Source: Candidatus Methanophagaceae archaeon (GTDB lineage: Archaea > Halobacteriota > Syntropharchaeia > Alkanophagales > Methanospirareceae). Taken from it: DNA of 64,000 nt. Both the position numbers and the translations under genes were made by a program. This document shows, piece after piece, positions 2,301 to 52,681 of this stretch. Below the pieces are notes generated by a model. The model did no database searches. It had not been told where the DNA came from and was given only the letters and a program-made list of their open reading frames with translations. Numbering within the stretch: position 1 is the stretch's first letter; each line of letters opens with the position of its first letter. The stretch covers positions 19,773 through 83,772 of the forward strand of contig PQXC01000008.1 in NCBI GenBank assembly GCA_003194435.1, given 5' to 3'.

Positions 2301-2432
2301 TACTACGAGCAAAATGATTTGGAAGCGCGGGAGGAATTGAAGGAAGTGGAGGAGAGAATTGATAAGATGGTTGCGGGATTGTATGGGATTACGGATAAGG
2401 AGTTGGAGGATGTGAAGAATAATGGAACCTGA
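2301..2432 (+). pseudogene. Methyltransferase C-terminal tail, in frame immediately after the TGA at 2298-2300 (YYEQNDLEAREELKEVEERIDKMVAGLYGITDKELEDVKNNGT*)
   Basis: Same frame as the methyltransferase. Carries the ...LYG(I/L)T.EEL..V... C-terminal motif typical of type I/IIG/PglX methyltransferases. Confidence 0.5.
2322..2416. repeat. Direct repeat copy 1 (methyltransferase tail) flanking the AT-rich cassette; copy 2 is at 4509-4603
   Basis: gaattgaaggaagtggag...attgataagatggttgcgg.attgtatgggattacgg...gagttggaggatgtgaagaa is present at both sites. Confidence 0.8.
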
Positions 2433-3141
2433 GGTTGCAGGAGTTTTAAGCCAGTTCAAATCTATCAAGAAACATGCAAGTCTACTTCGTCAACATATCT
2501 TTTATGATACAAAGGAGGAGTTAGAAAGTCTTGTTGAAGAATTCACGGATGCAAAAATACATTTTGAAAGTATAAGGCACAAACAAAAAATTGACATATA
2601 TCTTCGGAGTATAAAATCAACGGAATGGAAATATAGAACCGATGAACAAAAAGCATTATTAAGAACAATAGACATAGAATGCGATAAAGCTATTGGTGCT
2701 TTAGAAAGCATAGCCACTCCCTTGTCGAAAGATGAATTAAAGAAACTTACACCTATCAGAGAGGAATTGGAAGAGCTATCAGAAGTATTACCGGATATAA
2801 ACTATGAAAGAAATTTAGAAGAAGCAATAAAGGAGTACGAAAAGGGAGATTATCTCGCATCGGCATTAATCTCCGGCCGTGTAATAATTTATGCCTTGGG
2901 TCAAATTCCCGGAGAGTCCGATGAAGAAAAAGTGAAATTTTTGCGAGAAAAAGGGATTATAGAGAAAGGCAGAAAAGATGTTCACGAGTCAATAATAAAA
3001 GCGAGTAGAAGAGCAAGAAATTTCTTCTCTCACGATATTAAAGTGTTTCCAACACCTTCTGAGGCACTTTCATTGTTAGGTGATGCTATTGGGATTTTAG
3101 GAATTGTTAGCAAAGTTTTGAAAGGGGAGGGAAAGTCTTGA
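2422..3141 (+). CDS. Hypothetical protein with a C-terminal HEPN-like RNxxxH motif (ASRRARNFFSHD); first gene of the AT-rich cassette
   Basis: 239-aa ORF. Visibly more AT-rich than its flanks. R-N-x3-H matches the HEPN Rx4-6H signature. Confidence 0.35.
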   Translation: MEPEVAGVLSQFKSIKKHASLLRQHIFYDTKEELESLVEEFTDAKIHFESIRHKQKIDIYLRSIKSTEWKYRTDEQKALLRTIDIECDKAIGALESIATPLSKDELKKLTPIREELEELSEVLPDINYERNLEEAIKEYEKGDYLASALISGRVIIYALGQIPGESDEEKVKFLREKGIIEKGRKDVHESIIKASRRARNFFSHDIKVFPTPSEALSLLGDAIGILGIVSKVLKGEGKS

Positions 3142-3193
3142 AAAGGAAAAACGGTTTGCCAGAAGTGGTGGAAGAGAAAAAAAATAGATTGGA

Positions 3194-3646
3194 ATGAGCG
3201 AAGAAAGAAACAAAGCTGAAGATGTGGAGAGATTGAAGGAAGAATTGAATGAGTGGATAGACCATAGAATTGTGGATAATAACGCCTTTATAAGTTCTCC
3301 TAAGAAAGAAACCCTCTCTTTACTCTTTGCTTTACTTCCCCTCTTGGCTATTTGCGGCTCATGGCTATGGGGCATTCTAAAACAGTATTACATTTATTCT
3401 CTCCATCTTGTATTCATACTCTGGACTGTGGTAGGTATTACGGAGTCAATAGCAAAAAGGAAAGGGACAAAAGAATTTATTAAGGCGCATATAAATTTGA
3501 AAGATGCAGTTTATTTTTCTTTCCGTAATGTGAAAGCAATGGTATTTTCCTTCGATGTGTTATTTATTCTCTGTATTTTTGTGCTTTTGCTTGTTAAAGA
3601 TTTGAGATGGTGGCTATGGGGTGATCGTCACATTAGTATTATATGA
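3194..3646 (+). CDS. Small hypothetical membrane protein (about 3 predicted TM helices)
   Basis: Hydrophobic stretches LLFALLPLLAICGSWLWGIL, LHLVFILWTVVGI, LFILCIFVLLLV. AT-rich. Confidence 0.3.
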   Translation: MSEERNKAEDVERLKEELNEWIDHRIVDNNAFISSPKKETLSLLFALLPLLAICGSWLWGILKQYYIYSLHLVFILWTVVGITESIAKRKGTKEFIKAHINLKDAVYFSFRNVKAMVFSFDVLFILCIFVLLLVKDLRWWLWGDRHISII

Positions 3647-3899
3647 AAAAGCAGTAACAAATACCGCGACAATGGTGGAGGGAGATTATAAAATAGAACT
3701 GAACACTTTTAGGAAAAAAGTACTATCAGGAATTGCAATAGTCCTCATTATAGGCTTAATCGCGGCTTTAGTCTATGTATTCTATAAAACACCCTTAGAA
3801 ATATACTTCATGATTTCAGAAGATCCATCTGGACTTTTTGGAATAATTCTAACCTTATTTGCAATCTTGACAAGTTATGCTCTTTATCAGAATATTTGA
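3621..3899 (+). CDS. Small hypothetical membrane protein (2 TM)
   Basis: GIAIVLIIGLIAALVYVF and GLFGIILTLFAILTSYALY. Overlaps the previous ORF by a few codons (operon-like). Confidence 0.25.
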   Translation: MIVTLVLYEKAVTNTATMVEGDYKIELNTFRKKVLSGIAIVLIIGLIAALVYVFYKTPLEIYFMISEDPSGLFGIILTLFAILTSYALYQNI

Positions 3900-4129
3900 G
3901 TATAAAATTCACAATTGCTGACGTTACCGTACAAAAAAATAAACTTTCCATGCTCAAAATGGAGATTGATAAAATGAACGTTGAAGAACTCGAGAGGGTG
4001 AAGAAAAATTTGCGAAAGTGGCCTTTACCGATAATCGAAAAGTTTTTGTTTTTCAACTACTACGGTTTCATGCCCACGAGATATACTTTTGAGGTAGACG
4101 AGAAAGATGAGAAGTCAAATAGAAATTAG
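3896..4129 (+). CDS. Small hypothetical protein
   Basis: 77-aa ORF in the cassette; no recognisable motif. Confidence 0.2.
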   Translation: MSIKFTIADVTVQKNKLSMLKMEIDKMNVEELERVKKNLRKWPLPIIEKFLFFNYYGFMPTRYTFEVDEKDEKSNRN

Positions 4130-4487
4130 TGCGAAGTTAAAAGTGTTATATGCAATTGGGAGGGGACTCAGGATGATTGTAGTCGGATGGAATAATGGGT
4201 CACCTAATAATAGAACCGGAGCTGGATACGGCGTCCGAATAGTACGCGAAGATAGAGATATGTATTTCCAGAACACGTGGTCTTCTGTGATCATTGAGCT
4301 TGACAATGGAGATTTATTGGATGTTAGGTTATCAGCTTCATTTTGGAGAGGTTGTACTGAACTGCGGAATGTTAAAATAGGAAAATGGATGCTTGAGCAG
4401 GGGCTTGCTCCGTGGCCAAAAGGTGACCCGCCAAAACTCAAATTAGAACCGATAGGGAATAGAAGATTCCGGTTAAGTCGCTTGTAA
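4107..4487 (+). CDS. Hypothetical protein (last ORF of the cassette)
   Basis: 126-aa ORF; ends 10 nt before the second copy of the methyltransferase tail. Confidence 0.3.
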   Translation: MRSQIEISAKLKVLYAIGRGLRMIVVGWNNGSPNNRTGAGYGVRIVREDRDMYFQNTWSSVIIELDNGDLLDVRLSASFWRGCTELRNVKIGKWMLEQGLAPWPKGDPPKLKLEPIGNRRFRLSRL

Positions 4488-4496
4488 CTTCCCAAC

Positions 4497-4640
4497 AATT
4501 TGCAAGCGAGAGAAGAATTGAAGGAAGTGGAGGGGGAAATTGATAAGATGGTTGCGGAATTGTATGGGATTACGGGTGAAGAGTTGGAGGATGTGAAGAA
4601 GACGTTAGGGATTTTGAAAGGCGAGGATGGTGAGCGATAG
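4497..4640 (+). pseudogene. Orphan second copy of the methyltransferase C-terminal tail (LPNNLQAREELKEVEGEIDKMVAELYGITGEELEDVKKTLGILKGEDGER*); no start codon
   Basis: By eye, roughly 90% nucleotide identity to 2322-2416 over about 95 bp. Confidence 0.55.
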
Positions 4641-4847
4641 ATAGGATAGTTTTAGAGATGATATACCTCTTTTGTGTGTTCGTGTTTCTCCATCAGAAGA
4701 GACAGCTATTTGAAAGATATAATAAAATTGATGGACTGATGGATATGGACAATCCCTTTTATAAAATCATACCTTATATTATGTTTTATACCTTTGAGAC
4801 CAAAAAGAGAAAAAAGAGACTAAAAGTAAGGGAGAAGAAGGAGGGAG

Positions 4848-5156
4848 ATGGGTGTAGATATAGACATAGAGATAGAGAATGAGCATGAGAATCGGTTATT
4901 GAGACGTAAGGAGGTTTTCTTCCGGTTAAAGTATGATGGTGGCTCACCAAGCAGAGCGGAGGCACGTAAGGCTCTGGTAAATGCACTCCGGTGCAGTCCG
5001 GACCTGCTTGTGATTGACTGGATGCGTGCAGAATTTGGCAAGCGTGAGGCGGTAGGCTATGCGAAGATATACGAGAATGAAGATAGGATGAAGGAGATAG
5101 AGAGGGAGCATATATTAAAGAGGAACTTTGGAGGTACAAATGGAAATGATACATAG
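4848..5156 (+). CDS. rps24e: 30S ribosomal protein S24e
   Basis: [34 protein letters not shown] matches the S24e family pattern; followed directly by S27ae, as in archaeal operons. Confidence 0.85.
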
Positions 5157-5313
5157 CTACTATGAGGTATTAAAAGAGGAAGATGGAGGATTGAAATTGA
5201 AGAGGAAGCGGAGAACATGCCCGAGATGTGGTGCCGGAGTCTTCCTGGCAGAGCATGAAGACCGCTACTCGTGCGGTAAATGTGGCTATACCGAGTTCAG
5301 GAAGAAGAGATAG
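5128..5313 (+). CDS. rps27ae: 30S ribosomal protein S27ae (zinc ribbon)
   Basis: [28 protein letters not shown]4 zinc ribbon; 61 aa. Confidence 0.85.
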
Positions 5314-5337
5314 GGATATGGATATGGATAGTTAGTC

Positions 5338-6447
5338 TTATTTTAGCCTGACCCTGAACACCACGAGCATGATTATAAAAGTAAGCGATAGTGTCACGAT
5401 ATAAACAGCAGAGATGATTGCTGCTCGTTTAAATATGAAATCCTTCCTATTAAATGTGTCAAGAACGATAATGAGAAATAAAATCAGGAGATAAGCGATA
5501 AAACTGAATGATAAAGGTCTTAATAACCTCCACTTCTTCCGACCTTCTTCTCTGGCACCTGCTACTCCTGCACCCTTCAACAAACGCTTCACACGCTCTT
5601 CAGTTGCAGGCTGAGTACGAAACAGGAAGTGATAGCAGGGCAGTCGAAAGTCCAGCACCGTGAGCTCGCTATCATGTAACGGATTCACAATAAAGAGATG
5701 CGCATGTGCGGGATTAACCTCAAAATGGTGCGATTTTAAATGCTCTTCTATCTTGCGCAATGCACACGCCAGCTTATCCGGCTTTCCATGCAATAAGACA
5801 CTCTGTTCATCCGTCTGGTATTCCAGGTGACGGTGACGCGTAGTTAGCTGTATAATCGTAGCAGCTATTGGTGCAACCAGCGCAGTAACGAAGAATTTTA
5901 GTAGCTGTGGTGCCGGATCATCTTCCTGCCCAAATCCGGTGAGTATCGCGCCCCAGAAAGCGAGATTCGCGAGAGCAATGAGCATCCCGGCTAAGACCCC
6001 GGAAAAAGTCACAATTCCTATGGAACTATTCTTAATATTAATATGTGTGAGTTCGTATGCCAGTACAGCCTCCATCTCCTCATCGTCAAGCAGGTCTATC
6101 AATCCAGTAGTAAGAACAACAGAGGCATGTCTCTTGCTCCTGCCTGCTACAAATGCATTTGGCATCGCGGAATCCACAATGAAGACTCCTGGCTCAGGAA
6201 TACCTGCCTTTGATGCAAGCCTGTGTACCATCTCGTGTAGTTGAGCATGAGCATTACTTGTCTTCCTCGCATGGTACCAGCGCAGCAATAATCGGTCAGC
6301 AATGAGATACATGAGCAATATGAGCAGGAATAGCGCAAGAGCACCAATAGCAACAATGATTAACACTGGTGGTAGTGGTAATGGTAATCCCTGCCCGAAC
6401 ATCCCCCATCCAGCCAGAAGTTCTCTCATCTGAAATCTCAATTTCAA
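5338..6447 (-). CDS. htpX: HtpX-like M48 family zinc metalloprotease, membrane-bound
   Basis: N-terminal TM helices. HtpX-like block ...NAFVAGRSKRHASVVLTTGLIDLLDDEEMEAVLAYELTHI... (HExxH-type motif region). Confidence 0.65.
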   Translation of the reverse strand: MKLRFQMRELLAGWGMFGQGLPLPLPPVLIIVAIGALALFLLILLMYLIADRLLLRWYHARKTSNAHAQLHEMVHRLASKAGIPEPGVFIVDSAMPNAFVAGRSKRHASVVLTTGLIDLLDDEEMEAVLAYELTHINIKNSSIGIVTFSGVLAGMLIALANLAFWGAILTGFGQEDDPAPQLLKFFVTALVAPIAATIIQLTTRHRHLEYQTDEQSVLLHGKPDKLACALRKIEEHLKSHHFEVNPAHAHLFIVNPLHDSELTVLDFRLPCYHFLFRTQPATEERVKRLLKGAGVAGAREEGRKKWRLLRPLSFSFIAYLLILFLIIVLDTFNRKDFIFKRAAIISAVYIVTLSLTFIIMLVVFRVRLK

Positions 6448-6470
6448 ATTTAGTTATAGATTATAGATAG

Positions 6471-7094
6471 TTACATAAGGATAAACTTTGTTAGGAGCAG
6501 CTTGCCTTCTTTCACTATCCCTACACCTTCATATTTTATATCGCCAGCCCTTAAAGCAGCCCGAAACGCATCGAACGAATCAGGAGAGTTCACTATACTC
6601 TGCAATGTGTGCTCACTGGTATATACATTTATCGTGGGGTCTGGATTCTTTCCCGTCTTCAGCTCCGCCATATCTCCCCTTATGTTACTATTGAAATTCA
6701 ATACGCTACCGTTATCGAGCGTGATGTATATGTTTACGCGTTCGTTACCGAATACCCATCTGATTATCTCGGGATCAAAGATGATAGCAAAAGTTTTTGT
6801 ATGGTATACCTTATCCAGGTTGATCTTGAGGGTGAAGGAGTCCAGGGGAGCGATAAATGAATCCAAATCATTAGCGTTATCAAGTGCTTCCTTTATCTCC
6901 TCATAATCACACTCTGATATAAGCCCTTTGCTCTCACCCTTATTCAGAACCCTATTAATTCCCATCTTCTCTTCACTCCAATTCCCCGCACCTGCTATAT
7001 TGACAGGATTGACAAGAAATGATACAATGATAACGATGATAATGACCATGAACAGCAGCGATGCAACGTCAATATTGTTACTTTTACCCCTCAT
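6471..7094 (-). CDS. Hypothetical protein with an N-terminal membrane anchor
   Basis: N-terminal hydrophobic segment LLFMVIIIVIIVSFLV. No confident domain; the C-terminal region is possibly SCP2-like. Confidence 0.3.
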   Translation of the reverse strand: MRGKSNNIDVASLLFMVIIIVIIVSFLVNPVNIAGAGNWSEEKMGINRVLNKGESKGLISECDYEEIKEALDNANDLDSFIAPLDSFTLKINLDKVYHTKTFAIIFDPEIIRWVFGNERVNIYITLDNGSVLNFNSNIRGDMAELKTGKNPDPTINVYTSEHTLQSIVNSPDSFDAFRAALRAGDIKYEGVGIVKEGKLLLTKFILM

Positions 7095-7147
7095 CTCTAT
7101 AATAAAATATCATATATGTATGTGTAGTGTAGATATAAACAATTATT

Positions 7148-7543
7148 ATGAGAAGGATAGAGATAATAACGCGGGAAAGCACCGAGCTTGTAGATATTAC
7201 AGACAAAGTAAAAGAGATAGTCAAGAATGAGGGTGTTACCTCCGGTATATGTGTGGTATTCACAAAGCATACAACCACAGGACTCATAATAAATGAGAAT
7301 GAAGCGGGTTTGAGAAGCGATATCATTGCTCTTCTGAACGAACTGATCCCAAAAGGTAGGGGATACATGCATGATAGAATAGATAACAATGCGCATTCGC
7401 ATCTCAGGGCTATGATCCTCGGTTCCTCTGTGTGTATCCCGATAGATCAGGCTAACTTAATGCTCGGGCGATGGCAGAGTATCTTATTTGTTGAGTGTGA
7501 CGGACCGAGAAAGAGAGAGGTATATGTAAAGGTTATACCATAG
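7148..7543 (+). CDS. yjbQ: YjbQ/UPF0047 family protein (secondary thiamine-phosphate synthase-like)
   Basis: ITDKVKEIV...GICVVFTKHTTTGLIINENE...RSDI...HSHLRAMILGSS; 131 aa, typical of the family. Confidence 0.7.
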   Translation: MRRIEIITRESTELVDITDKVKEIVKNEGVTSGICVVFTKHTTTGLIINENEAGLRSDIIALLNELIPKGRGYMHDRIDNNAHSHLRAMILGSSVCIPIDQANLMLGRWQSILFVECDGPRKREVYVKVIP

Positions 7544-7572
7544 AAACCATAAGCCATAGTACCATAGTATTT

Positions 7573-7600
7573 TATAGTATATAATGTTATTTCTATTAAA
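7573..7600 (+). promoter_or_regulatory. Candidate archaeal TATA-box promoter (tttatagtatataatg) about 50-80 nt upstream of the 7653 gene
   Basis: AT-rich TTTATA-like element in an intergenic region; inferred. Confidence 0.3.
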
Positions 7601-7652
7601 GGTTTCTTCATGAATGTGTATTCTTTGGTAAGAGGATAAGAGGAGGGTAGAG

Positions 7653-8357
7653 ATGAGGAAAGCAAGGACAAGAGCAAGAGGGGACGAGGAGAAGGTGATT
7701 GCTTACATGACATCCAGGTTATTTCCATGGAACTTTATTGTGGAAGATGTTGATTCGGAGTCATTAAGGCATTTTGTTCCTTATGCGATCCAGATATGTG
7801 AGGATAAGGGAATAAAGAAGGGCTCGATAGAGCGAGACAGGGTAGACAAGGTAAAGGAGGTGATAGAAAAGGAAGTGAAATGGATGCTGAACGACTATCT
7901 ACATCAAGAAGACAGGGATGCAGCGAGGATACATGGCAAATTCTACGCTCAGTATCCTTTCGCGTTCGCTCAGGCACTGATATATACAATCCTATACCGA
8001 TTGGGAGCGAGCCTGGAAGACGTGGTGAATATAAACGCACTTGGTGAGTTGCTGGAGCTGGATATTAAAGCGATAAAGAGAAGAGAGCGTTTCATTCGCG
8101 ATTTGATATCAAAGAACGAGGAGAAGGCATTGAGGATATTCAGCAAAGCCATGTTGAACAGGAAAGTGATATCAGAAGAGGGTGATTATATAGGCAGCGT
8201 GAGTGACATCGTATTTGATAGTGAAACAGGTACCCTCAAAAGTCTGATATTGAATAAGCAGAAAGGTTCAGAGAAGCTAAAAGTACCTATGAATGATATG
8301 AAATTGAATTTATATAGCAGGAATATCGTCTTAAAATATGTAAAGAAGGAGCAATGA
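7653..8357 (+). CDS. Hypothetical protein with a C-terminal PRC-barrel-like domain
   Basis: C-terminal VISEEGDYIGSVSDIVFDSETGTLKSLIL resembles a PRC barrel. Confidence 0.4.
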   Translation: MRKARTRARGDEEKVIAYMTSRLFPWNFIVEDVDSESLRHFVPYAIQICEDKGIKKGSIERDRVDKVKEVIEKEVKWMLNDYLHQEDRDAARIHGKFYAQYPFAFAQALIYTILYRLGASLEDVVNINALGELLELDIKAIKRRERFIRDLISKNEEKALRIFSKAMLNRKVISEEGDYIGSVSDIVFDSETGTLKSLILNKQKGSEKLKVPMNDMKLNLYSRNIVLKYVKKEQ

Positions 8358-10378
8358 CCACTTTCTCCTCTCATTCTTATTCGTCACCCCCGTTCTTAGA
8401 GCGGTATCTGAATGATTCGCTCAGTCTCCCAGATTTCTATTCCTTAGCTACATTGCTGAGAGTACAGAAGAGAGAAGCAGAAAGGTTGGTGATAAAGCAT
8501 AAGGAAAGAGCAGCGGGATGCAGGATCAGGGATCTGTTCTGCACGAAGGAGACGAGGGAACTGAGACGTGAGATTCTGGAGATGCTATCGCTCTATGCAG
8601 TGACTCGAATCGGTAGGGAGATGATTCTCACACTCATACCCACACAAGACAGAGAGGAACTCCAGAGGCGGTTCACTGATATACGAGCAGGTATAGAACT
8701 GGTGCAATTACTGGGCGCTGAGAATGTGACGAGGGTGCGGGAAATGCTATCAAAAGCGGAGATAAGGGGTATTGGCATCTTTAAAGCTCCCGTCGTCGCC
8801 GTTCAGGATAGAGATATAGAGCAGTTGATAAAATCAAACTATGGCGATTTTGTAACTGTGGAATTTCTGGATTCAACGGAGAAAGCGGAAGAGCTCGTGA
8901 ATAGAGAGAATAGCATTTTACTGATCGGTGAGCATGAGCATGAGCACGAATACGATGAACCTGGTATCATAACGAAACGGGTTGATGATTTATCAGAGCC
9001 CTGCGAGATATGTCCAGAGTTCGTGGTCAGGAGCTATGTAGCGAAGAAGAGTGCGATAGAGGTACTGATAGAGATTCTTGAGCAGTTTGAGGCTATCAGG
9101 AACTCAGAACTATTCAAAGAAGTCTCAATTGCCGATTTAAAAGCTGTATTATCGCTTATCAGTGTTGGTGAAGCAGAGGTTAAAGACAAGGACAGGGATA
9201 AGGATAAGGGGGCTGAGAGCTTCGACGAGATGATCTTGAGATATGAGGAGGAGATAAACAGGGAAGCCGTACGGATAATGAAGACGGGCGGTGGAGCAGC
9301 TGAATTCAGAGCTTATCTGGATGATATTCTGTTGCAGATGGCAGATGAGCTGATGCTCAAGGGAGAGGACAGAATCACACTCCGGGAAAGTGCTCTGGAT
9401 CTGGATGCTGGTGAGCCACCATTTGAATTCAGGAGGGATAAGATAGAGAGCCTGCGCCTGAAGTATAACAGGGAGAGGGGAGAGAGGAGCTATTACCGGT
9501 TGAGTGAATTGGCGAAGCAGCTGGAGCAGCAGAGGGAAGTGGTGAGAGAAGGTATCAAAAAACTCTTCTACCTCGATTTCATGCTCGCTACGGCGCTGTT
9601 CGCTCGTGACTTCGAGTTGAATCCCCCGGAGCTTATAGATGGGGGTCTGGGGTTGGAGATGGGGAAGAACATATTTCTGAAGGCTGAAGAGTTAAAAGGC
9701 GGAGAGAAGGTAGTTCCGGTATCCTACTCGATAGGGGAGGTGAAATTGGGCATCTTCGGCGCTACTCCACATCCTGTAGCCATCCTCACAGGTGCCAATA
9801 GCGGGGGTAAGACCTGTTTGCTTAATATGCTTGCAACATCTGTTATACTCACCGAGCTGGGTCTGCCAGTGCCTGCCGAGAGGGCGGAGATACCACTGCT
9901 GCCTCTTTATCTGTACAGGAGAAAGATGATAAAGAAGACGGGGTCTTTTGAATATTCGATGAGGGCATTGAGCAGGATATTCATGCGAGAGGGCGGGAAA
10001 GTGGTATTGATAGATGAACTGGAAGCGCTGACCGAACCAGGAGCAATGGGGCGTATAATGGCTTCAATCCTGAATAACCTGCCTGAAGGTACTCTCGGGG
10101 TGGTGATAACGCATTTGATCCATGAGATATTGCCGCATATAAGTATGGCGAAGATTCGGGTGGATGGTATAGAAGCCGAAGGTCTGGATGCCTCGGGTAA
10201 CATTATTGTGGATCGGCAGCCGATGTTCAACCATATCGGTTCGAGCATGCCGGAACTGGTGATAAAGAAGCTATTGGGACGAGTAAGGAATGAGGAATTG
10301 AGAACAGTATATGAGGAGATAATAGATGCACTGGCAACTGAGCGAGCGGAATTGGGCTCAAAGAGCAAAGATGGATGA
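8354..10378 (+). CDS. MutS-family ATPase (MutS2/MutS-like; no obvious mismatch-binding domain)
   Basis: Walker A ILTGANSGGKTCLLN and Walker B VVLIDELEALTEPG. MutS domain V-like arrangement in the C-terminal third. Confidence 0.6.
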   Translation: MTTFSSHSYSSPPFLERYLNDSLSLPDFYSLATLLRVQKREAERLVIKHKERAAGCRIRDLFCTKETRELRREILEMLSLYAVTRIGREMILTLIPTQDREELQRRFTDIRAGIELVQLLGAENVTRVREMLSKAEIRGIGIFKAPVVAVQDRDIEQLIKSNYGDFVTVEFLDSTEKAEELVNRENSILLIGEHEHEHEYDEPGIITKRVDDLSEPCEICPEFVVRSYVAKKSAIEVLIEILEQFEAIRNSELFKEVSIADLKAVLSLISVGEAEVKDKDRDKDKGAESFDEMILRYEEEINREAVRIMKTGGGAAEFRAYLDDILLQMADELMLKGEDRITLRESALDLDAGEPPFEFRRDKIESLRLKYNRERGERSYYRLSELAKQLEQQREVVREGIKKLFYLDFMLATALFARDFELNPPELIDGGLGLEMGKNIFLKAEELKGGEKVVPVSYSIGEVKLGIFGATPHPVAILTGANSGGKTCLLNMLATSVILTELGLPVPAERAEIPLLPLYLYRRKMIKKTGSFEYSMRALSRIFMREGGKVVLIDELEALTEPGAMGRIMASILNNLPEGTLGVVITHLIHEILPHISMAKIRVDGIEAEGLDASGNIIVDRQPMFNHIGSSMPELVIKKLLGRVRNEELRTVYEEIIDALATERAELGSKSKDG

Positions 10379-10400
10379 ATGGGATAGGAGTGATACCACA

Positions 10401-11420
10401 ATGGGAGCGAATACGAATATAAATACAAATACGAATACCGGATATTTCCCCTATCTGCGCATCGGTAAGATGAACGAGATATTGAAGCAGATACCGCTGC
10501 AATACATCTCGGTAGTGAATGAGTTCTCAACCAGGGGCATAGCGAGTGCGATTGGAGTGAGTATGACCACAGTTAATAATCTTATAGCGACAATGAAATC
10601 GCTCGATTTCGTTGTTGGGCGGCGGAGATTCTTGTTTACACGCCCGGGTGCGGACTATTCAGTTCTAATAAGGACGGATGAAGATGCAGCGAAGAAGATA
10701 CTGGAAGAGCAGACGAAAAAGATCGAGTATTTTGCAGTGGTGAAGCAGGAACTGATTCAGAAAGGGGAACTGACGATTTTTGAGATTGGTGAGGAGATGG
10801 TAAAACGGTATGGCAAGAATTGGACAAACCCGCTGACTTTAAAGACCTATGGCGCTGCAATTGCAACCATACTTGATTTCACAGGCTTTGGGCATTATAG
10901 AAGTGGGATTTTAAGACTTGAGGAAGAGAAGGAAGGGATGGACATCCCCGTTCCTTACCTCAGTGTGGAGAAGATGCTGAAGATAATGGATGCTCTATTC
11001 CCCGGGGGCAGTGAAATACATAAGCTTGCAGCAGAACTGGGAACAGAGGAGAGACGGCTGAGTCAGGAACTCTCATGTTGTCGTGCAATGGGGTTTGTCA
11101 GATACCCACGGAGAGGTTTTTACGAATTGACAGAGGATGGGCGGGAGATAACACGCAGCAGTGAAGGACTCAGGAAGAAGAAGTTCACCAACCATCTGCT
11201 TGGTTCTGGTTATAAAAAACTTATAGACAGGCTACAGCAGCAACTACATGCTGACGATAAAATAACGCTGGTAACGCTTGGTGACCTCTTGGAGAAGGAA
11301 TATAACAGGCAATGGTCGGAGATAACGAAGCGAACATACGCGAAGAAGTTCTTAAACTGGCTCAGGTATTCAGGCATCGTGGTCAAGGTAGAGGGAGGAT
11401 ATAAATTGCGTGTATCTTAA
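10401..11420 (+). CDS. Hypothetical protein, probably winged-helix DNA-binding; start uncertain (ORF opens at 10326)
   Basis: The ORF overlaps the MutS-like gene end. Internal Met at 10401/10470. The N-terminal NTNINTNTNT repeat comes from the tandem aatacgaatataaatacaaatacg. Confidence 0.3.
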   Translation: MGANTNINTNTNTGYFPYLRIGKMNEILKQIPLQYISVVNEFSTRGIASAIGVSMTTVNNLIATMKSLDFVVGRRRFLFTRPGADYSVLIRTDEDAAKKILEEQTKKIEYFAVVKQELIQKGELTIFEIGEEMVKRYGKNWTNPLTLKTYGAAIATILDFTGFGHYRSGILRLEEEKEGMDIPVPYLSVEKMLKIMDALFPGGSEIHKLAAELGTEERRLSQELSCCRAMGFVRYPRRGFYELTEDGREITRSSEGLRKKKFTNHLLGSGYKKLIDRLQQQLHADDKITLVTLGDLLEKEYNRQWSEITKRTYAKKFLNWLRYSGIVVKVEGGYKLRVS

Positions 11421-11510
11421 GTTTTAAGTTTTAATCTTAATTAATACTGATTATAATGAAGAACCGCAGGAGGAGGCTGTTTCAAATTTGAGAAAGGGCA
11501 GGTAAAAGAG

Positions 11511-29568: not shown

Positions 29569-29931
29569 TCACCTTCGAAAAACCTCCACTCCTTCTTCCA
29601 AAGCTCTTCTTATGAAGAAATTCCCTTCTTCCTTCATCTTCTCCAGCTCCTCCTCTGTATATGGGAATACATCCATCCCTACCGGGAACCGGGAAGGCAA
29701 AAAGCGCGGTATCCGCTCCATGAAGGTCTCTTCTGATGCACTCAGTATCAGGAGTAAGTCTATATCGCTTCCTGGCACGCATTCGTCCCGAACAAAAGAG
29801 CCGAAGAGGAGCACACGCTTCACTTCTGGATGCTTTTCCTCTATCTCCTTCAGATATCTCCTGAGCGATTCTTCCACTAACCTCTTATCGAAGTATCTTA
29901 TCCTCACATTCATAATCTCCATAATCTCCAT
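29569..29931 (-). CDS. Nucleotidyltransferase (MNT/Pol-beta superfamily), copy 1; antitoxin-like
   Basis: LLFGSFVRDECVPGSDIDLLLIL is the hG[GS]x9-13Dh[DE]h motif. Confidence 0.7.
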   Translation of the reverse strand: MEIMEIMNVRIRYFDKRLVEESLRRYLKEIEEKHPEVKRVLLFGSFVRDECVPGSDIDLLLILSASEETFMERIPRFLPSRFPVGMDVFPYTEEELEKMKEEGNFFIRRALEEGVEVFRR

Positions 29932-30184: not shown

Positions 30185-30547
30185 TCACCTTCGAAAAACC
30201 TCCACTCCTTCTTCCAAAGCTCTTCTTATGAAGAAATTCCCCTCTTCCTTCATCTTCTCCAGCTCCTCCTCTGTATACGGGAATACATCCATCCCTACCG
30301 GGAACCGGGAAGGCAAAAAGCGCGGTATCCGCTCCATGAAGGTCTCTTCTGATGCACTCAGTATCAGGAGTAAGTCTATATCGCTTCCTGGCACGCATTC
30401 ATCCCGAACAAAAGAGCCGAAGAGGAGCACACGCTTCACTTCTGGATGCTTTTCCTCTATCTCCTTCAGATATCTCCTGAGCGATTCTTCCACTAACCTC
30501 TTATCGAAGTATCTTATCCTCACATTCTTAATCTCCATAATCTCCAT
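30185..30547 (-). CDS. Nucleotidyltransferase (MNT), copy 2; differs by a few residues from copy 1
   Basis: Same motif. Lies in the second unit of the ~620-bp tandem duplication. Confidence 0.7.
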   Translation of the reverse strand: MEIMEIKNVRIRYFDKRLVEESLRRYLKEIEEKHPEVKRVLLFGSFVRDECVPGSDIDLLLILSASEETFMERIPRFLPSRFPVGMDVFPYTEEELEKMKEEGNFFIRRALEEGVEVFRR

Positions 30548-47603: not shown

Positions 47604-47825
47604 TTAACGAATATCGGTGGATTTACGCTTGTAACGCTCAGTGATGAAGACCCGTTTTGCTCTGTACCTCACTTTCGCTTCATCATAATCATATTGCTCC
47701 ACGAGCTTCGCAAGCAATCGCTTTTTACTCTCTCCCTCGAGTCCCAGGTCTGACATTATCGCTTCTACTATCCTGTCCTTGTCCTTATTCTTATCTTCAT
47801 TCCCGGGCTTATCTTCTTCGCTCAT
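47604..47825 (-). CDS. Small hypothetical acidic/basic protein
   Basis: 73-aa ORF with an RBS-like context; no motif. Confidence 0.25.
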   Translation of the reverse strand: MSEEDKPGNEDKNKDKDRIVEAIMSDLGLEGESKKRLLAKLVEQYDYDEAKVRYRAKRVFITERYKRKSTDIR

Positions 47826-47979: not shown

Positions 47980-48105
47980 AAAAACGGTAAGACCCGTAAA
48001 GTTGTCCAGCGTTACCAGTGCAAGAACTGCAGGCACATTCACAGATGCGTGAAGGAGGAGGTATTTTTTAAGAATTTCTGTGAATATTCTGGTGCTTCCT
48101 CATAA
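47980..48105 (+). mobile_element. Remnant of an IS1-family InsA-like transposase N-terminal zinc-ribbon region (KNGKTRKVVQRYQCKNCRHI...); no start codon, about 40 codons
   Basis: Matches the InsA pattern KNGK-x4-QRYxCKxCxxxF. The open frame is bounded by stops, has no ATG, and lies in an AT-rich intergenic spacer. Confidence 0.4.
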
Positions 48106-48109
48106 GCTT

Positions 48110-51100
48110 TTATGCCCTCCTGCTGTTATTTCCATCACGCATCCTATTATACATATTCTGCGACTCTGAAAAAATATGAATAAGCCATCTACTCCCTTCT
48201 CTACTCTCCAAACGCTCAATCGCATTTCTTAAAACCTCCTCATCCATGTATCCCATTTCATTCAATCTCTCCTTTATATCATTCACAGAATCACTCCCTG
48301 AAAAAGAATGCAATAGTAGAATATGTCCTGCAACCACACGCTCACTTTCCTCTCCTAATCCTAATATCCAACCACAAGCCCTTATTGCATACTCTATTCT
48401 TCGCTCATTCGTGAAAAGATTTCCCGCACGCAGCATATCCTCCCTCGCTCTACCATACTCGCCTAATCTCACATAAGCGAGACCTCTGTTGTAGTATGCT
48501 TCCGCAAGATCAGGATTCAGTTTTATCGCCTTGTCGTAATCTTCTATCGCTCTATCATACTCGCCTAATCTCACATAAGCGAGACCTCTGTTGTAGTATG
48601 CTTTCGCATAATCTTTATTCAGTTCTATCGCCTTATTGAAATCTTCTATCGCTCTACCATACTCGCCTAATTCCGCATAAGCGAGACCTCTGTTGCTGTA
48701 TGCTTTCGCATAATCTTTATTCAGTTCTATCGCCTTATTGAAATCTTCTATCGCTCTACCATACTCGCCTAATCTCACATAAGCGAGACCTCTGTTGCTG
48801 TATGCTTCCGCAAAATCAGGATTCAGTTTTATCGCCTTATTGAAATCTTCTATCGCTCTATCATACTCGCCTAATTCCGTATAAGCGACACCTCTGTTGT
48901 TGTTGTATGCTTCCGCATATTCATTTAGTTCCAGAGATGTGCTATATGCCTTAATTGAACTCTCAAAATCCTTCTGTTCATATAAAGCATTTCCGAGATA
49001 GAAGAAATGTGCTGCAAGAGAGAGGCGAGCGATATCCTTTCCAGGAGCTTCAACATGTTCCACTTTTTTGAAATAATTGTAAGCGAATAGCAGCATGCGA
49101 GCATCGGGAGGTGCATTTTCTGCGGCATCCGCTATCAGGTAGAAGAAGCTCATATTTTTACCTTCATCAAAAGCCTTTTTTATCTCCTCTCTTATCACTG
49201 CCTTCGCATCCATTAAATCTAAAGAGGCTTCAAGGAACTTTTCAGCAAGTTCTCTATCTTCTATTCCGCCTTCTATCGCACTATTTATCGCATCTCGCCA
49301 ATACTGTGATAATGAATATAACCTTCCTTCTCTCTGCAGATATTTTTCAAGCGCCTCTTTCTGCTCTTTTGCCTCATTTCCTTGTGCAATTCTTTCATAA
49401 ATCGCATCATAAAGGAATATTGAGAAAATTCTGAGCTTTGAGATTGTGATTAAGAGCTTAATGAAAGTCATATCACTTTCATCATTACGCAATAATTTTC
49501 TTATTGTGTCCATCAGAATGTTCTTAACACCTTTTGGCAATCTCTCTATTTCTTCCATGCTGAGTGTTCTATTGTGATGTTCATGCATCAAATGTCGTAT
49601 GTAGAAAGGGGCGTTGTTTGACCTCTCAACCAATAATTGCATCGCTTTGTTCAGCACTTCGCTCATTCTTCCGCTCTCAATCATTTCACATGCTTCATCT
49701 GGAGGAATGCCAGCAATACTTACATTGAAATACTTTATGTAGCTCGCAATGATCTTCCACATATCATCCGTTTCAGGTTTTACTTCATAAGGTATCAGTT
49801 CAAACCCTCTATCATAAACAACTCTCTGAAGAATGTCCTTTTCAGAATTTCTCATCGTTATAATCATTTTTGCACGGTTTCTCTTTGCAAAATCAACAAT
49901 TCTCTCGCATTTATTCCTTAACGCTTCTTCCACATTGCCATTCGCTTTCAAATGTCCGAGAGCATCAATTACAATGAATTTCCTATATTCATGCTCAACC
50001 TGTGATATAGATGATTCGTATTCGTATGAATTAAGGAATATAACTTCTTCCTTCCCCCGCTCGATAATACGCTCAACAAGGAGAAGCATGTATGTCGTCT
50101 TTCCCACACCTATATCGCCGTGTATAGCGAGAATCTGCCCCTCCGAAGGCTCTTTAAACTCATAATAATTATATACGGTTGATTTGAACTCTTCCCATGT
50201 CTGAAATCCCTTTTTGTAGGGCGTTTCTAAAAATCTATCATCTTCAACTACATTCTTCAATTCATCTTCATTTCTCACGCGCTTATACGCCTCTATTGTT
50301 CTTATTGGAGGTCTTTCTTCAAGCTCAGGAGGTTCAATAACATTAAAATCAAGTTCAAAATGCAAATTGTATCGCTCAAGAACATCTCTTACACTATTCA
50401 ATTCCTCTTCGATTTTCTCTTTCACTTTATCTGCGACATTGTTTTCTTTGTGGTCTTTGTATTTCAGGAGCATTTCTACATATATCTCGCTTCCTTTTAT
50501 CTCTACTCTCTCCACTATTTCGTGTTTCCAGTATTCTTCCTGGGATTCCTGCGGGATTTGTGGTAGACGCCTGTAATCTTCTGGGGGTAGGCGATTCTTA
50601 CCGCAGTCAAGGGCATCTGCGAGCCTGAGCAATGCTGCTAAAAATCTTGTGCGAACATTCTCACCTGCGATATGAATTGTGCTCTCCTCATCAACATCAT
50701 TTATGGCAACCTTACTGCTGTGAGCACGGCAAATCCATTGAATAATTGTCGCTTCTGTTTTACCACTTAACTCTATTTCTCTCAAATGCTTGCTGATATA
50801 TTCAGCACTTCGCTTGTGATGTTCTTTCCTGATTCTATTGCAAACTTCAGGATCATTAATATCCTCACCTTCCCGCATTAACATCCCGATGTCATGGAGC
50901 CAAGCACTGCATTTCAGCAGGAAATTCTCATATTCACTTAGATTCACACCTTCGGTGAGTTTATCCAGTATTTTGATTACTGCCTCTGAATGCCCTGGAC
51001 CGTGGTCAGTGTAATATCTGAAAAGACCTTGAGAGTGTATATATGGTAGTTTTCGCATGCAAAACTCCTTTATTTTTTCAAGTCTTTCACCGAGATTATG

Positions 51101-51121
51101 ATTAGACATGAATCTCACCAT
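48110..51121 (-). CDS. HD-domain / P-loop NTPase / TPR-repeat protein (STAND-like candidate defence NTPase)
   Basis: N-terminal HD (HGPGHSEAV...AWLHDIGML...RLADALD); Walker A LAIHGDIGVGKTTYML; Walker B KFIVIDALGH; at least 8 C-terminal TPR units (AEAYxNRGLAYxxLGEYxRAIEDFNKAIELN). Confidence 0.6.
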   Translation of the reverse strand: MVRFMSNHNLGERLEKIKEFCMRKLPYIHSQGLFRYYTDHGPGHSEAVIKILDKLTEGVNLSEYENFLLKCSAWLHDIGMLMREGEDINDPEVCNRIRKEHHKRSAEYISKHLREIELSGKTEATIIQWICRAHSSKVAINDVDEESTIHIAGENVRTRFLAALLRLADALDCGKNRLPPEDYRRLPQIPQESQEEYWKHEIVERVEIKGSEIYVEMLLKYKDHKENNVADKVKEKIEEELNSVRDVLERYNLHFELDFNVIEPPELEERPPIRTIEAYKRVRNEDELKNVVEDDRFLETPYKKGFQTWEEFKSTVYNYYEFKEPSEGQILAIHGDIGVGKTTYMLLLVERIIERGKEEVIFLNSYEYESSISQVEHEYRKFIVIDALGHLKANGNVEEALRNKCERIVDFAKRNRAKMIITMRNSEKDILQRVVYDRGFELIPYEVKPETDDMWKIIASYIKYFNVSIAGIPPDEACEMIESGRMSEVLNKAMQLLVERSNNAPFYIRHLMHEHHNRTLSMEEIERLPKGVKNILMDTIRKLLRNDESDMTFIKLLITISKLRIFSIFLYDAIYERIAQGNEAKEQKEALEKYLQREGRLYSLSQYWRDAINSAIEGGIEDRELAEKFLEASLDLMDAKAVIREEIKKAFDEGKNMSFFYLIADAAENAPPDARMLLFAYNYFKKVEHVEAPGKDIARLSLAAHFFYLGNALYEQKDFESSIKAYSTSLELNEYAEAYNNNRGVAYTELGEYDRAIEDFNKAIKLNPDFAEAYSNRGLAYVRLGEYGRAIEDFNKAIELNKDYAKAYSNRGLAYAELGEYGRAIEDFNKAIELNKDYAKAYYNRGLAYVRLGEYDRAIEDYDKAIKLNPDLAEAYYNRGLAYVRLGEYGRAREDMLRAGNLFTNERRIEYAIRACGWILGLGEESERVVAGHILLLHSFSGSDSVNDIKERLNEMGYMDEEVLRNAIERLESREGSRWLIHIFSESQNMYNRMRDGNNSRRA
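48470..48910. repeat. Near-identical tandem array of 102-bp units (4-5 copies) encoding consecutive TPR repeats inside the HD-NTPase-TPR gene
   Basis: ctcgcctaat(c/t)(t/c)c(a/g)(c/t)ataagcgagacctctgttg..gtatgct(t/c)(t/c)cgca...atcgccttattgaaatcttctatcgctcta.catactcgcc recurs with a 102-nt period. Confidence 0.8.
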
Positions 51122-51661
51122 CCCATGAGGGTTTCTTATAGGTTTTATTGTTATTTTTCATAAAGATTAAAGATTACTTGCCTGAATATTATACGGTCTC
51201 TTCTCATACAAAACTTCTTCCAGCAGACCTGTTCTACAAAATACTTTTCCAACGTGCCCATCAACAATCATCACATCAATTGTTTCAATCCACAAAACCC
51301 GGACAAAATTCATTTCCGGTTTTAACTTAGGAATTTAAGAATAAAGTGCCATAACTTATCTGCCTTATCGAGCTTCTCCATGACCTCCTCCTTACCTCGC
51401 TCTATAATATTCATCGCAGCGCTATTCAATACCTTACCAGAGGCTTTTTCAATCATACGATAAAGAGGTGAGAGAGCGATAGGGATAACGGTGCCAGATT
51501 TTCACGGGGATTTGAGTTAAAATGAACAGAGCTTCTCCAACTGGATGCCCCGCAATTTCATTGCGGAGTGGCGTGGATAGGGCTTTTAAAGGATGTGCGC
51601 AAGTTAAAACAGAAATATTAATATATTTAAAAAACAAAAGAGAAGAGAGAAGAATAACAAA

Positions 51662-52681
51662 ATGAAACTAAAGAAGATGTTTGCAGTAATTGTTCTGGTA
51701 GCCATAATTTCGGTTTCTTTTGCTGGATATCATCATTTTTTTGTCGGGAAAGAACAATTTGAAGGGGATTCATCTCCTCCAATTGTCTCAAATGCTTCCC
51801 TAGCTAATGTTTCTATTCTATTAAAATTAGAAGGGGTTTCGGTTAAGATAGCGTCTGATATGAACGAGAGCGCAGTTTGCTCTCTGCTTCAAAAAGAGCT
51901 TGAGGCTGATGTGAATCCCGTGGGAGAGGGAGTGTATGAAATAAGGAAAAACATTACAGAGGAGCATTTAACAGAGGTTTTGAAGAAGATAAACGCAAGC
52001 ATAGCAGAGGAAATAGATGATGAGCCGTTTTTTAAGGAAGGTATAACTCCCCAGACAAGGAACGAAACCTGGCAAATAATCAAGACGAAGTTAAATATGC
52101 TTGGTCTTGAAAACTTCACTGTGAGGACAAGCGGAGAAAACCTCTTGCGTATTAATATCACAGGTGTGGATGCTCAGGATGTTCAGATCGTGAAGGATAT
52201 AATAGGTGTACCGGGAAAGTTTGAAATAAGAATTCAGACGGGTGGTAAAGGTGGAGACATAAATGCAGGACAAAGATTAGAAGATATTGAGAATATCACT
52301 GCCCATGTCATTTATGCGAGCGAAGGAATAGAAAGCGCGGGAACGATACCAGTGAGAGTAGGAGGGGACTCACTATGGGGTGTTCCTTTCTCACTGAAAA
52401 AGGAAGCTGCTGCTAAGTTGAGGGATGATGCGGAGAAGTATGGTGCTTTGGATAACCCAATGGACCACGAAATCGCTATGCTGCTCGACGATGTGGTGAT
52501 ATATAGTGCTCCTTTGTCACCGGAGCTTGCGAGTGAGATGAAGACAAAAAAGATAGAGAACTTAGTTGTTGAAACTGGGCTTGGAGAGGAGGGATTTAAG
52601 AAGACAAAAGAGCTAATAATTCATTTAAGAGCGGGTACAATGCCAGTTAATGTTAAATTAGTTCGTTTTGTTAGCCTATAA
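51662..52681 (+). CDS. Paralog of the extracytoplasmic domain of the 11511 SecD-like protein, lacking the C-terminal TM bundle (signal-anchored, 339 aa)
   Basis: TKLNMLGLENFTVRTSGENLL...GKFEIRIQTGGKGG...ENITAHVIYASEGI...KYGALDNPMDHEIAMLLDDVVIYS...LIIHLRAGTMPVNVKLV aligns with residues ~140-340 of the 11511 protein. Confidence 0.45.
   Translation: MKLKKMFAVIVLVAIISVSFAGYHHFFVGKEQFEGDSSPPIVSNASLANVSILLKLEGVSVKIASDMNESAVCSLLQKELEADVNPVGEGVYEIRKNITEEHLTEVLKKINASIAEEIDDEPFFKEGITPQTRNETWQIIKTKLNMLGLENFTVRTSGENLLRINITGVDAQDVQIVKDIIGVPGKFEIRIQTGGKGGDINAGQRLEDIENITAHVIYASEGIESAGTIPVRVGGDSLWGVPFSLKKEAAAKLRDDAEKYGALDNPMDHEIAMLLDDVVIYSAPLSPELASEMKTKKIENLVVETGLGEEGFKKTKELIIHLRAGTMPVNVKLVRFVSL

Follow-up and report, generated by a model that had tools for sequence, protein, structure and literature searches.

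A candidate single-polypeptide STAND receptor with an N-terminal HD-CE domain in an ANME-1 archaeon

Described relatives and the locus

Avs5 (AVAST type 5; SIR2-nSTAND3-TPR, as in EfAvs5 and PaAvs5) is an experimentally antiviral protein in which one polypeptide carries an N-terminal enzymatic effector, nSTAND3 as its NTPase and a C-terminal TPR-type sensor, and which is reported to be activated by oligomerization or filamentation upon phage sensing. The archaeal protein PH0952 of P. horikoshii, a STAND with a TPR sensor, is the source of a model for resting-state autoinhibition through contacts between the NOD, an arm and the TPR part, and its autoinhibition and oligomerization mechanism has been described (PMC6468293). 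Neither PH0952 nor MalT has an enzymatic effector; they are STANDs of the transcription-regulator type.

The HD-CE domain (PF24391) is found repeatedly on the N-terminal side of nSTAND1, nSTAND3 and NACHT NTPases, with caspase or HEPN domains as neighbors, and its fusions to STAND NTPases are spread over many bacteria and archaea. Known architectures include HD-CE+NA-iREase1+NACHT, HD-CE+caspase+nSTAND1, HD-CE+HEPN+nSTAND3, HD-CE+nSTAND3+HEAT and HD-CE+EAD7, the last being a fusion to effector-associated domain 7, an adaptor said to recruit effectors (PMC7159879). HD-CE is also often joined to IF-2B-family sugar-phosphate isomerase-like domains. In the literature that could be searched we found no HD-CE protein that has been characterized experimentally, and neither HD-CE nor nSTAND3 is named in the text of the Kaur 2020 and 2021 papers.

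The gene described here lies in a 64,000-nucleotide stretch of DNA (the window) from a Ca. Methanophagaceae archaeon. As originally predicted, positions 48110..51121 of the minus strand hold one ATG-initiated open reading frame of 1003 aa plus stop; its product is identical to NCBI PXF52572.1 from this ANME-1 MAG, where it is labeled 'hypothetical protein'. The gene does stand alone, with intergenic flanks of 284 bp (3′) and 540 bp (5′) that are AT-rich (GC 0.384 and 0.376; the window averages 0.46), and its own GC is 0.396. An IS1-like transposase remnant had also been proposed for the 3′ flank, and here the likeness has no statistical support. The flank contains a short decayed frame of about 40 codons with half a zinc-ribbon motif (NGKTRKVVQRYQCKNCRH; 47980..48102, plus strand), whose best score, to DUF6431 (E=6e-4), falls below the cutoff. 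The frame is present and more intact at the matching place in the locus of a related MAG, L003, and that copy scores 13 bits against Zn_ribbon_InsA (cutoff 26.1; E=0.09), which is not significant. A scan of the locus for bacterial promoters and terminators, with models that are not applicable to archaea, did no better than on shuffled sequence.

A predicted effector-NTPase-sensor architecture

Curated HMMs, conserved motifs and structure prediction agree on the tripartite layout of effector, NTPase and sensor first suggested for this protein, and the H..HD..D N-terminus and the Walker A/B center are both present, with ligands and motifs invariant in 11 homologues. All domain coordinates given below refer to the minus strand.

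The N-terminal HD-CE domain (aa 10-262; 50336..51094) consists of a helical HD core and a small alpha/beta subdomain (aa 190-262). It matches Pfam PF24391 over aa 34-246 (E=4.1e-41, 141.9 bits), and its ligand set is H44, H76-D77, H101/H102, H134 and D169; across 76 HD-CE proteins H76, D77, H134 and D169 are invariant, while H44 and H101 are kept in at least 90%. The curated HMM match, the H...HD...H...H...D ligands and the HD helical fold together place the domain in HD-CE, a family of the HD metal-dependent phosphohydrolase superfamily. The AlphaFold2 model of the domain (pLDDT 87, pTM 0.86) supports an HD fold for the N-terminal part of the protein. Its nearest structural neighbors are domain III of Ppx/GppA and phosphodiesterases; the known immune HD nucleases are not among them. 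These neighbors share 9-22% identity with the domain, which differs from them in having an alpha/beta C-terminal subdomain of its own and in carrying a full H-HD-H-H-D set of ligands. The fold alone does not reveal the substrate, and neighbors of this kind are equally compatible with a role in signaling.

The combination of an HD domain with a STAND NTPase had been regarded as not well described; this overstated its novelty, as Pfam already has a family for HD-CE, which precedes NTPases of several STAND clades. The other HD-CE proteins share the N-terminal position of the domain, ahead of a STAND NTPase and of repeats or an adaptor, whereas their NTPase clades and sensors differ, and the HD domain described here is 20-47% identical to those of the other HD-CE conflict proteins. 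In P0103, a member of the same NTPase lineage, a NERD nuclease stands in for HD-CE. With the recurrence of HD-CE before STAND NTPases, this NERD swap and the use of nSTAND3 in Avs5, the N-terminal domain behaves, as far as comparative sequence evidence can tell, as an effector.

A low-confidence linker (aa 263-320; 50162..50335; pLDDT about 50), with an FLE(T/N)P motif (aa 297-301) that does not vary across the NOD-family alignment, leads into the P-loop nucleotide-binding domain (aa 321-450; 49772..50161) with its five strands. Walker A reads GDIGVGKT (aa 335-342; nt 50096-50119), and Walker B reads FIVID with a single acidic residue, D386, followed by Ala; neither motif varies among 11 close homologues and five distant members of the lineage. 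A sensor-1 motif, IITMR, contains T422 and R424, which are invariant in both the homologue and the NOD-family alignments, and its strand (418-423) is seen in the AlphaFold2 model. We take MIITMR to correspond to the Arg after strand 4 of NACHT and NB-ARC NTPases (hhhT/S-x-R; Leipe et al., 2004). A predicted helical domain and a putative winged-helix part of the NOD follow (aa 451-605; 49307..49771), modeled as helices with a beta-hairpin at 596-603, and contain the motifs SNNAPFYIRH (GxP-like, aa 501-510) and LPKG (aa 528-531), of which S501, Y507, P529 and G531 are conserved in the NOD family. The modeled order of secondary structure in the NOD is beta1-5, then the helical and then the winged-helix part.

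The match to nSTAND3 (PF20720; aa 329-425) scores 33.7 bits against a cutoff of 27.2 and is modest, covering 112 of 155 model positions. nSTAND3 is also the best NTPase family in five relatives, among them P0004, P0019, P0090 and P0100, and P0103 and P0104 give only a sub-threshold match to nSTAND5. With the P-loop motifs, the sensor-1 Arg and a curated clade model in agreement, we assign the NTPase to the STAND superfamily. A RecA/KaiC reading was rejected, because those matches do not extend outside Walker A and the model shows five strands with predicted helical and winged-helix parts after them. We also rejected a housekeeping AAA+ (Cdc6/Orc-like) identity combined with conserved synteny, the outcome that would have spoken against the original prediction: the best families are nSTAND3 and nSTAND5, no Cdc6/Orc family is among the best 25 of 41 Pfam matches at E<=1, and synteny is not conserved, with the gene in at least four unrelated contexts. 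Searches of PDB sequences with the protein and with the NOD-family profile returned generic P-loop matches only: RecA concatemers, KaiC, and NB-ARC at E=0.018. The lineage is very rare and patchy, since an exhaustive phmmer search with the NOD module found 12 representatives in 1.84 billion proteins at E<=1e-3, and gave no link to any characterized protein among these 12.

Degenerate TPR-like helices form an arm (aa 606-694; 49040..49306; pLDDT 65-90) that joins the NOD to the putative sensor, a TPR array (aa 695-920; 48362..49039) modeled with pLDDT >90. The initial estimate of at least eight TPRs was too high: Pfam finds TPR_1 in six stretches, and AlphaFold predicts 13 helices at aa 695-920, that is six pairs and a capping helix, preceded by about five TPR-like helices at aa 606-686. 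The DNA of the array contains a 102-bp tandem repeat (48445..48917; 4.6 copies, 90% identity) encoding near-identical TPR units, and homologues differ by whole 34-aa units. The variable positions 2, 5, 9, 13 and 34 of the unit sit on the concave, ligand-binding face, and five of the seven most variable positions are concave-face positions. The protein ends in a fast-evolving C-terminal tail (aa 921-1003; 48113..48361) that is helical and poorly modeled (pLDDT <50).

Avs5 likewise has effector, nSTAND3 NTPase and TPR-type sensor in one polypeptide, and there are these differences: the effector is HD-CE instead of SIR2, the host is an archaeon, the gene lies outside a defense island, and, apart from the P-loop, sequence searches detect no solved chain that resembles the protein. 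The Avs-type label given to the gene at the outset finds no support in PADLOC, none of whose Avs models matches, and the SIR2 N-terminus of Avs5 is absent; in that scan no defense model matched except for generic TPR matches and a weak mad8 match (E=0.005), and an NCBIfam scan gave TPR-driven matches only and no named system. By Foldseek, 734 columns align to PH0952 (6mfv; E=8e-10), and no other solved structure aligns over both the NOD and the TPR part; the alignment has 14% identity and low TM scores, and the NTPase clade of PH0952 is MalT-like rather than nSTAND3-like.

Mobility and selection

Copies of the gene with 88-90% DNA identity occur in ANME-1 and Syntrophoarchaeum among housekeeping genes, in four contexts unrelated to each other, and the homology among them ends at the ends of the ORF. 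Synteny is common only to one MAG of about 93% identity and is broken elsewhere. In every one of four hosts the GC of the gene is 39-40%, against 45-50% around it, and its GC3 is 0.37, against 0.50-0.54 in its neighbors. Because of this foreign composition and of the 88% DNA identity between two archaeal orders (dS to Syntrophoarchaeum 0.235), the gene looks to have been acquired by horizontal transfer, in line with what had been proposed. The gene is not in a defense island: no recognizable defense genes lie next to the gene in any context examined, and all the loci read are housekeeping. Of five close copies two are broken: L006 has three frame changes and L052 an in-frame stop. At least three other genomes still carry an intact copy, and many variants of 84-90% identity with different TPR numbers co-occur in metagenomes. 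A scan of viral contigs found no close relative of the gene, and carriage by viruses is therefore unsupported.

The whole-gene dN/dS is 0.52, against 0.08-0.21 for neighbors at equal dS, and is unevenly distributed. The NTPase has the lowest value (0.19), and since dN/dS is 0.19-0.38 over the NTPase and HD domains, these parts are under purifying selection. In the TPR array dN/dS is 1.06, a value near 1 for which misaligned paralogous repeat units, or relaxed instead of positive selection, may be partly responsible; in the C-terminal tail it reaches 1.41 (vs L003). Excess divergence from L003 was rejected at the DNA level, as the gene is 92.9% and the flank 93.1% identical, and what the gene has in excess of its flank is non-synonymous change only. 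The fast evolution and change of unit number in the TPR sensor, together with the GC and mobility pattern, would be signatures of an arms race and of mobility.

Candidate role and alternatives

We suggest, with a probability of roughly 60%, that the protein is a single-polypeptide STAND (NLR-like) receptor acting in innate immunity or biological conflict. Its overall design is of the same general kind as that of bacterial antiviral STAND proteins and of the NLR immune receptors of animals and plants, and it is from this architecture and the evolutionary pattern that we infer a role in defense. At rest the NOD, with its P-loop, helical and winged-helix parts, would be kept closed by the TPR arm and sensor in contact with it, on the model of PH0952. 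The TPR solenoid would use its concave face to bind a particular macromolecule, for which a protein from an ANME-1 virus or another mobile element is the most plausible candidate, and binding would lift autoinhibition, upon which nucleotide exchange could drive oligomerization. This in turn would gather the N-terminal HD-CE domains and activate a metal-dependent phosphodiesterase or phosphohydrolase, which may degrade nucleic acid or an essential nucleotide pool and so halt the infected cell or the invader.

A more specific version of this we offer only tentatively, as one with a small chance of being right in all its parts: HD-CE may represent an uncharacterized immune effector chemistry, that of a Ppx/GppA- or phosphodiesterase-like HD enzyme that, after clustering by an NLR-type switch, destroys a nucleotide, alarmone or polyphosphate pool and not DNA, in a receptor that is exchanged between ANME-1 and Syntrophoarchaeum as a bare single-ORF cassette without recognizable mobile-element flanks and that diversifies by gain and loss of TPR units.

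The strongest alternative, possible in our judgment and still improbable, is a non-immune signaling STAND in which the TPR part senses an endogenous protein or metabolite and HD-CE hydrolyzes a nucleotide signal or polyP-type compound (alarmone, cyclic nucleotide or polyP) under a MalT/PH0952-like switch. The housekeeping nature of every genomic context would suit such a protein, as would a MalT homologue as the closest solved match to the whole architecture, the frequent fusions of HD-CE to isomerase-like domains and the interspersion of defense and non-defense clades in the 2026 STAND survey. In a housekeeping regulator one would not, however, expect a foreign GC content, passage between orders as a lone ORF, disruption in two of five genomes, or protein change fivefold faster than in its neighbors with turnover of TPR units. 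The rarity and patchiness of the lineage also argue against it, and the other partners of HD-CE (caspase, HEPN, NACHT, EAD7 and the NERD swaps) are modules of conflict systems.

ANME-1 and Syntrophoarchaeum live in consortia, and this way of life would fit a self/non-self system, for kin recognition or programmed cell death in multicellular or consortium-forming archaea, triggered by allelic variants of cellular proteins from neighboring cells instead of by viruses. Such triggering has been proposed for many Aravind-type NTP-dependent conflict systems. Kaur et al. (2020; PMC7159879) report an enrichment of effector/EAD systems of this type in prokaryotes that are multicellular or form aggregates, the few archaeal cases among them. 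The co-occurring variants with different TPR numbers point the same way, but the locus encodes a cytoplasmic protein from a single gene, with neither partner gene, secretion signal nor polymorphic-toxin context, and we consider this explanation unlikely. Least probable of all, the gene may be a decaying passenger, or a selfish gene, that at present does nothing in this genome. The disrupted L006 and L052 copies and the raised overall dN/dS could point to this, but it sits badly with the purifying selection on the NTPase and HD domains, the intact copies elsewhere and a window copy of 1003 intact codons with all catalytic and NTPase residues kept.

The protein, in our preferred reading an immune or conflict receptor, is built from domain families that are already catalogued, as is the architecture of HD-CE with a STAND NTPase, and it leaves the general picture of STAND immunity unchanged. 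The immunity of ANME-1 and Syntrophoarchaeum is known mostly from annotations of CRISPR, restriction-modification and toxin-antitoxin systems (PMC13385816), and no STAND or TPR genes figure in the ANME-1 hotspot paper. For these uncultured archaea, which are central to anaerobic methane and alkane oxidation, a gene until now labeled as encoding a hypothetical protein would add a plausible NLR-type receptor to the immune repertoire. It also provides a concrete case of apparent recent gene flow between ANME-1 and Syntrophoarchaeum, and a compact, intact example with which the widespread candidate effector domain HD-CE may be tested.

Domain architecture and predicted structure

We find a single long ORF of 1003 aa with an ATG start on the minus strand (window 48110..51121), whose product is identical to PXF52572.1 in NCBI, there labelled 'hypothetical protein C4B56_05505' and derived from an ANME-1 (Candidatus Methanophagaceae) MAG. 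Pfam assigns HD-CE (PF24391) to aa 34-246 (E=4.1e-41, 141.9 bits against a cutoff of 27), nSTAND3 (PF20720) to aa 329-425 (33.7 bits against a cutoff of 27.2) and TPR_1 to six stretches at about aa 705-910, besides a match to the generic HD family at 25.5 bits; NCBIfam and PADLOC scans of the ORF gave only TPR-driven matches and a weak mad8. The long ATG start is plausible, because the peptide at aa 5-21 is kept in frame by several homologues and forms a confident helix in the AlphaFold2 model.

That full-length model (94 aligned sequences, mean pLDDT 80) reaches pLDDT >90 for the HD-CE domain and the TPR array, 65-89 across the NTPase, helical and winged-helix region, and <50 for the last 80 residues. 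Five NTPase strands (329-334, 360-363, 382-385, 418-423 and 441-446) are followed by a helical bundle, a helix-helix-hairpin (568-603), helices at 606-686 and a TPR solenoid (695-920), a predicted order that is the one expected for a STAND NOD (here the P-loop, helical and winged-helix parts), arm and repeat sensor. The original prediction of at least eight TPRs holds for the repeats and not for their number, as Pfam and AlphaFold2 give six canonical TPRs capped by one helix, together with about five further helices that are TPR-like but degenerate.

When the ORF is aligned with ten homologues (82-89% full-length identity, 84-90% over aa 1-700), H44, H76-D77, H101/H102, H134 and D169 of the HD domain show no variation, and neither do Walker A GxxGxGKT, Walker B D386 and sensor-1 T422/R424 of the NTPase; H76, D77, H134 and D169 are identical throughout the 76 HD-CE proteins compared. 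A six-ligand H-HD-H-H-D pattern is typical of binuclear HD phosphodiesterases. The predicted fold confirms the N-terminal domain as an HD enzyme, and fold alone leaves its substrate unfixed. The data support a receptor of the STAND/NLR-like type, in which an HD-CE effector is combined with a divergent nSTAND3-type NOD and a TPR sensor. Avs5 is described as a SIR2-nSTAND3-TPR antiviral STAND whose NTPase is annotated nSTAND3 (bioRxiv 2025.07.08.663546; PMC11897194); the NTPase of the ORF also matches nSTAND3, but the ORF matches none of PADLOC's Avs models. Among solved chains, sequence similarity to the ORF was absent outside the P-loop.

Relatives and modular partners

A word-indexed search with aa 1-700 retrieved ten full-length relatives at 84-90% identity, of 803-1178 aa, from Methanophagales, Ca. 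Methanospirare and Ca. Syntrophoarchaeum butanivorans, and a single relative at 55%, likewise from Methanophagales. Many more distant HD-CE domains follow at 20-47% identity, partnered with HEPN_Swt1 and nSTAND3, caspase and nSTAND1, NA-iREase1 and NACHT, nSTAND3 and HEAT, effector-associated domain 7 (EAD7), HATPase_c, or IF-2B-family domains. According to Kaur et al. (PMC7159879), EADs such as EAD7 serve as adaptors through which effectors are brought to NTP-dependent conflict systems. The NOD module (aa 290-700) found only 12 proteins at E<=1e-3 in an exhaustive phmmer search of 1.84 billion representatives, the distant members being nSTAND3/5-like NTPases with TPRs; in one homologous protein (P0103), a NERD nuclease domain takes the place of HD-CE on a related NOD. 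STAND conflict proteins are modular in just this way: effectors are swapped on a common NOD, and one effector occurs on different NODs.

Some of these relatives deserve separate mention. The IF-2B-family domain (PF01008) is fused to HD-CE in about twenty proteins (P0029, P0031, P0058-P0082), a recurrence which hints at small molecules, ribose-phosphate or nucleotide-derived, as possible substrates of HD-CE. An 85% identical protein from a JGI metagenome contig of 4152 bp (P0004) carries about 200 extra N-terminal aa ('YIIWLDILGFEKLA...'), loosely like a nucleotidyl-cyclase motif and covered by no Pfam family, with the N-terminal peptide present in duplicate. On an ENA metagenome contig (L054; k141_828699, 1-11461), a 43% identical HD-CE-only protein stands in a co-directional row of vWA, Tubulin_2, unknown 645-aa, DEAD-like 933-aa, HD-CE and weakly M48-like 742-aa genes, which may be a multi-gene conflict system with the same effector.

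Genomic setting and horizontal transfer

Defence genes are not among the neighbours of the STAND gene in the window. Two-component kinases, HisH, CarA and a methyltransferase are found to one side of it; to the other are an unannotated 339-aa membrane/secreted protein, a set of DUF2149/ExbB/DUF2162 transporter genes and surface proteins of the cohesin/dockerin type. A related Methanophagales MAG (L003) has downstream synteny in common with the window at 93.1% DNA identity (STAND gene 92.9%), and this synteny ends 70-240 bp upstream of the start codon. In three other contexts DNA identity of 88.4-90.3% extends only to the ORF ends, beyond which lie unrelated housekeeping genes: URO-D/HMG-CoA reductase and archease/ribosomal/MCR genes in two independent assemblies of Syntrophoarchaeum butanivorans (L001/L002), V-ATPase subunit I and peptidase M24 in Methanospirare (L052), and flanks unrelated to the window in Methanophagales AOM70-1 (L006). 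The GC content of the gene is 0.39-0.40 at all loci against 0.45-0.50 for host DNA, and its GC3 is 0.37 against 0.50-0.54 in adjacent genes. The copies of ANME-1 and Syntrophoarchaeum differ by a dS of only 0.235, a value that rules out vertical descent between the orders and implies a recent inter-order transfer; the gene moves horizontally among alkane- and methane-oxidising archaea. IMG/VR viral contigs held no close relative of the protein.

The 3' flank had been thought to hold an IS1-like remnant, a proposal that we do not retain: the zinc-ribbon-like frame there (47980-48102), found more intact at the same place in L003, is below significance for IS1 InsA or other families. Just downstream, a 73-aa lysine-/glutamate-rich ORF (47604-47825, minus strand) is probably a real small gene, since it is conserved in L003 (97% aa identity, dN/dS 0.12). 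The 5' intergenic region contains an open frame (~51230-51360, minus strand; 'VLWIETIDVMIVDGHVGKVFCRTGLLEEVLYEKRPYNIQ') with no Pfam match, about 100 bp of which is 90% conserved upstream of the L003 homologue; it may represent the remains of a gene or else conserved regulatory DNA. The divergent 339-aa ORF (51662-52681, plus strand), with an N-terminal signal/transmembrane segment and no Pfam match, is as poor in GC3 (0.374) as the STAND gene, and as it is missing from this position in L003, both may belong to one low-GC acquired segment (~48.1-52.7 kb). Elsewhere in the window, two near-identical 120-aa Pol-beta-type nucleotidyltransferase (MNT-like) ORFs (29569-29931 and 30185-30547, minus strand) form a tandem duplication of ~616 bp that takes in the 5' end of the neighbouring GHMP-kinase gene as well; in L003 there is only one copy, adjoining a HEPN fragment.

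Selection, sensor turnover and role

Nei-Gojobori estimates between the window and L003 give a dN/dS of 0.52 for the whole STAND gene (dS 0.116), with 0.19 for the NTPase, 0.38 for HD-CE, 0.42 for the helical domains, 1.06 for the TPR array (aa 695-920), whose repeat units may be misaligned between copies, and 1.41 for the C-terminal tail, ratios near 1 on ~100 codons being no proof of positive selection. The corresponding values are 0.08 for HisH, 0.10 for CarA, 0.15 for the methyltransferase and 0.14-0.21 for three genes further away; dS is 0.08-0.12 in the adjacent flanking genes, similar to the STAND gene, and 0.23-0.32 in the three further ones. Homologues differ in length by whole 34-aa TPR units, which in the window derive from a 102-bp tandem DNA repeat (4.6 copies, 90% identity). 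Among 36 distinct units, variability is highest at positions 13, 34, 18, 32, 5, 9 and 2, and five of these seven fall in the concave, specificity-determining face (2, 5, 9, 12, 13, 33 and 34; Magliery and Regan, PMC1261162), with a hypergeometric estimate of p ~0.001. The effector and switch are kept by selection, and the TPR sensor is turning over.

We favor an immune or conflict role as the best explanation, with a probability of roughly 60%. A role in physiological signalling, for which the housekeeping genes around the loci speak, as do the HD domain's Ppx/GppA-like and phosphodiesterase-like neighbours, is unlikely, and kin recognition, a variant of the conflict reading, is more doubtful still. 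Two other copies are interrupted, that of L006 (9993-12998) by three frame changes, making it a pseudogene or possibly a long-read indel error, and that of L052 (7416-10079) by an in-frame stop separating a 190-aa HD-CE piece from the rest, but the window copy is intact, and its pure decay is improbable.

For this putative conflict receptor, both the design and the three domain families had been catalogued before, and HD-CE-STAND fusions are widespread; archaeal NLR-type systems have been predicted earlier (PMC11291487), and a 2026 survey lists 589 STAND clades (PMC13581612). Biochemical characterisation of HD-CE is apparently absent from the searchable literature, a point specific to this case, as are the rare NOD lineage, the unannotated gene and the clear transfer between orders.
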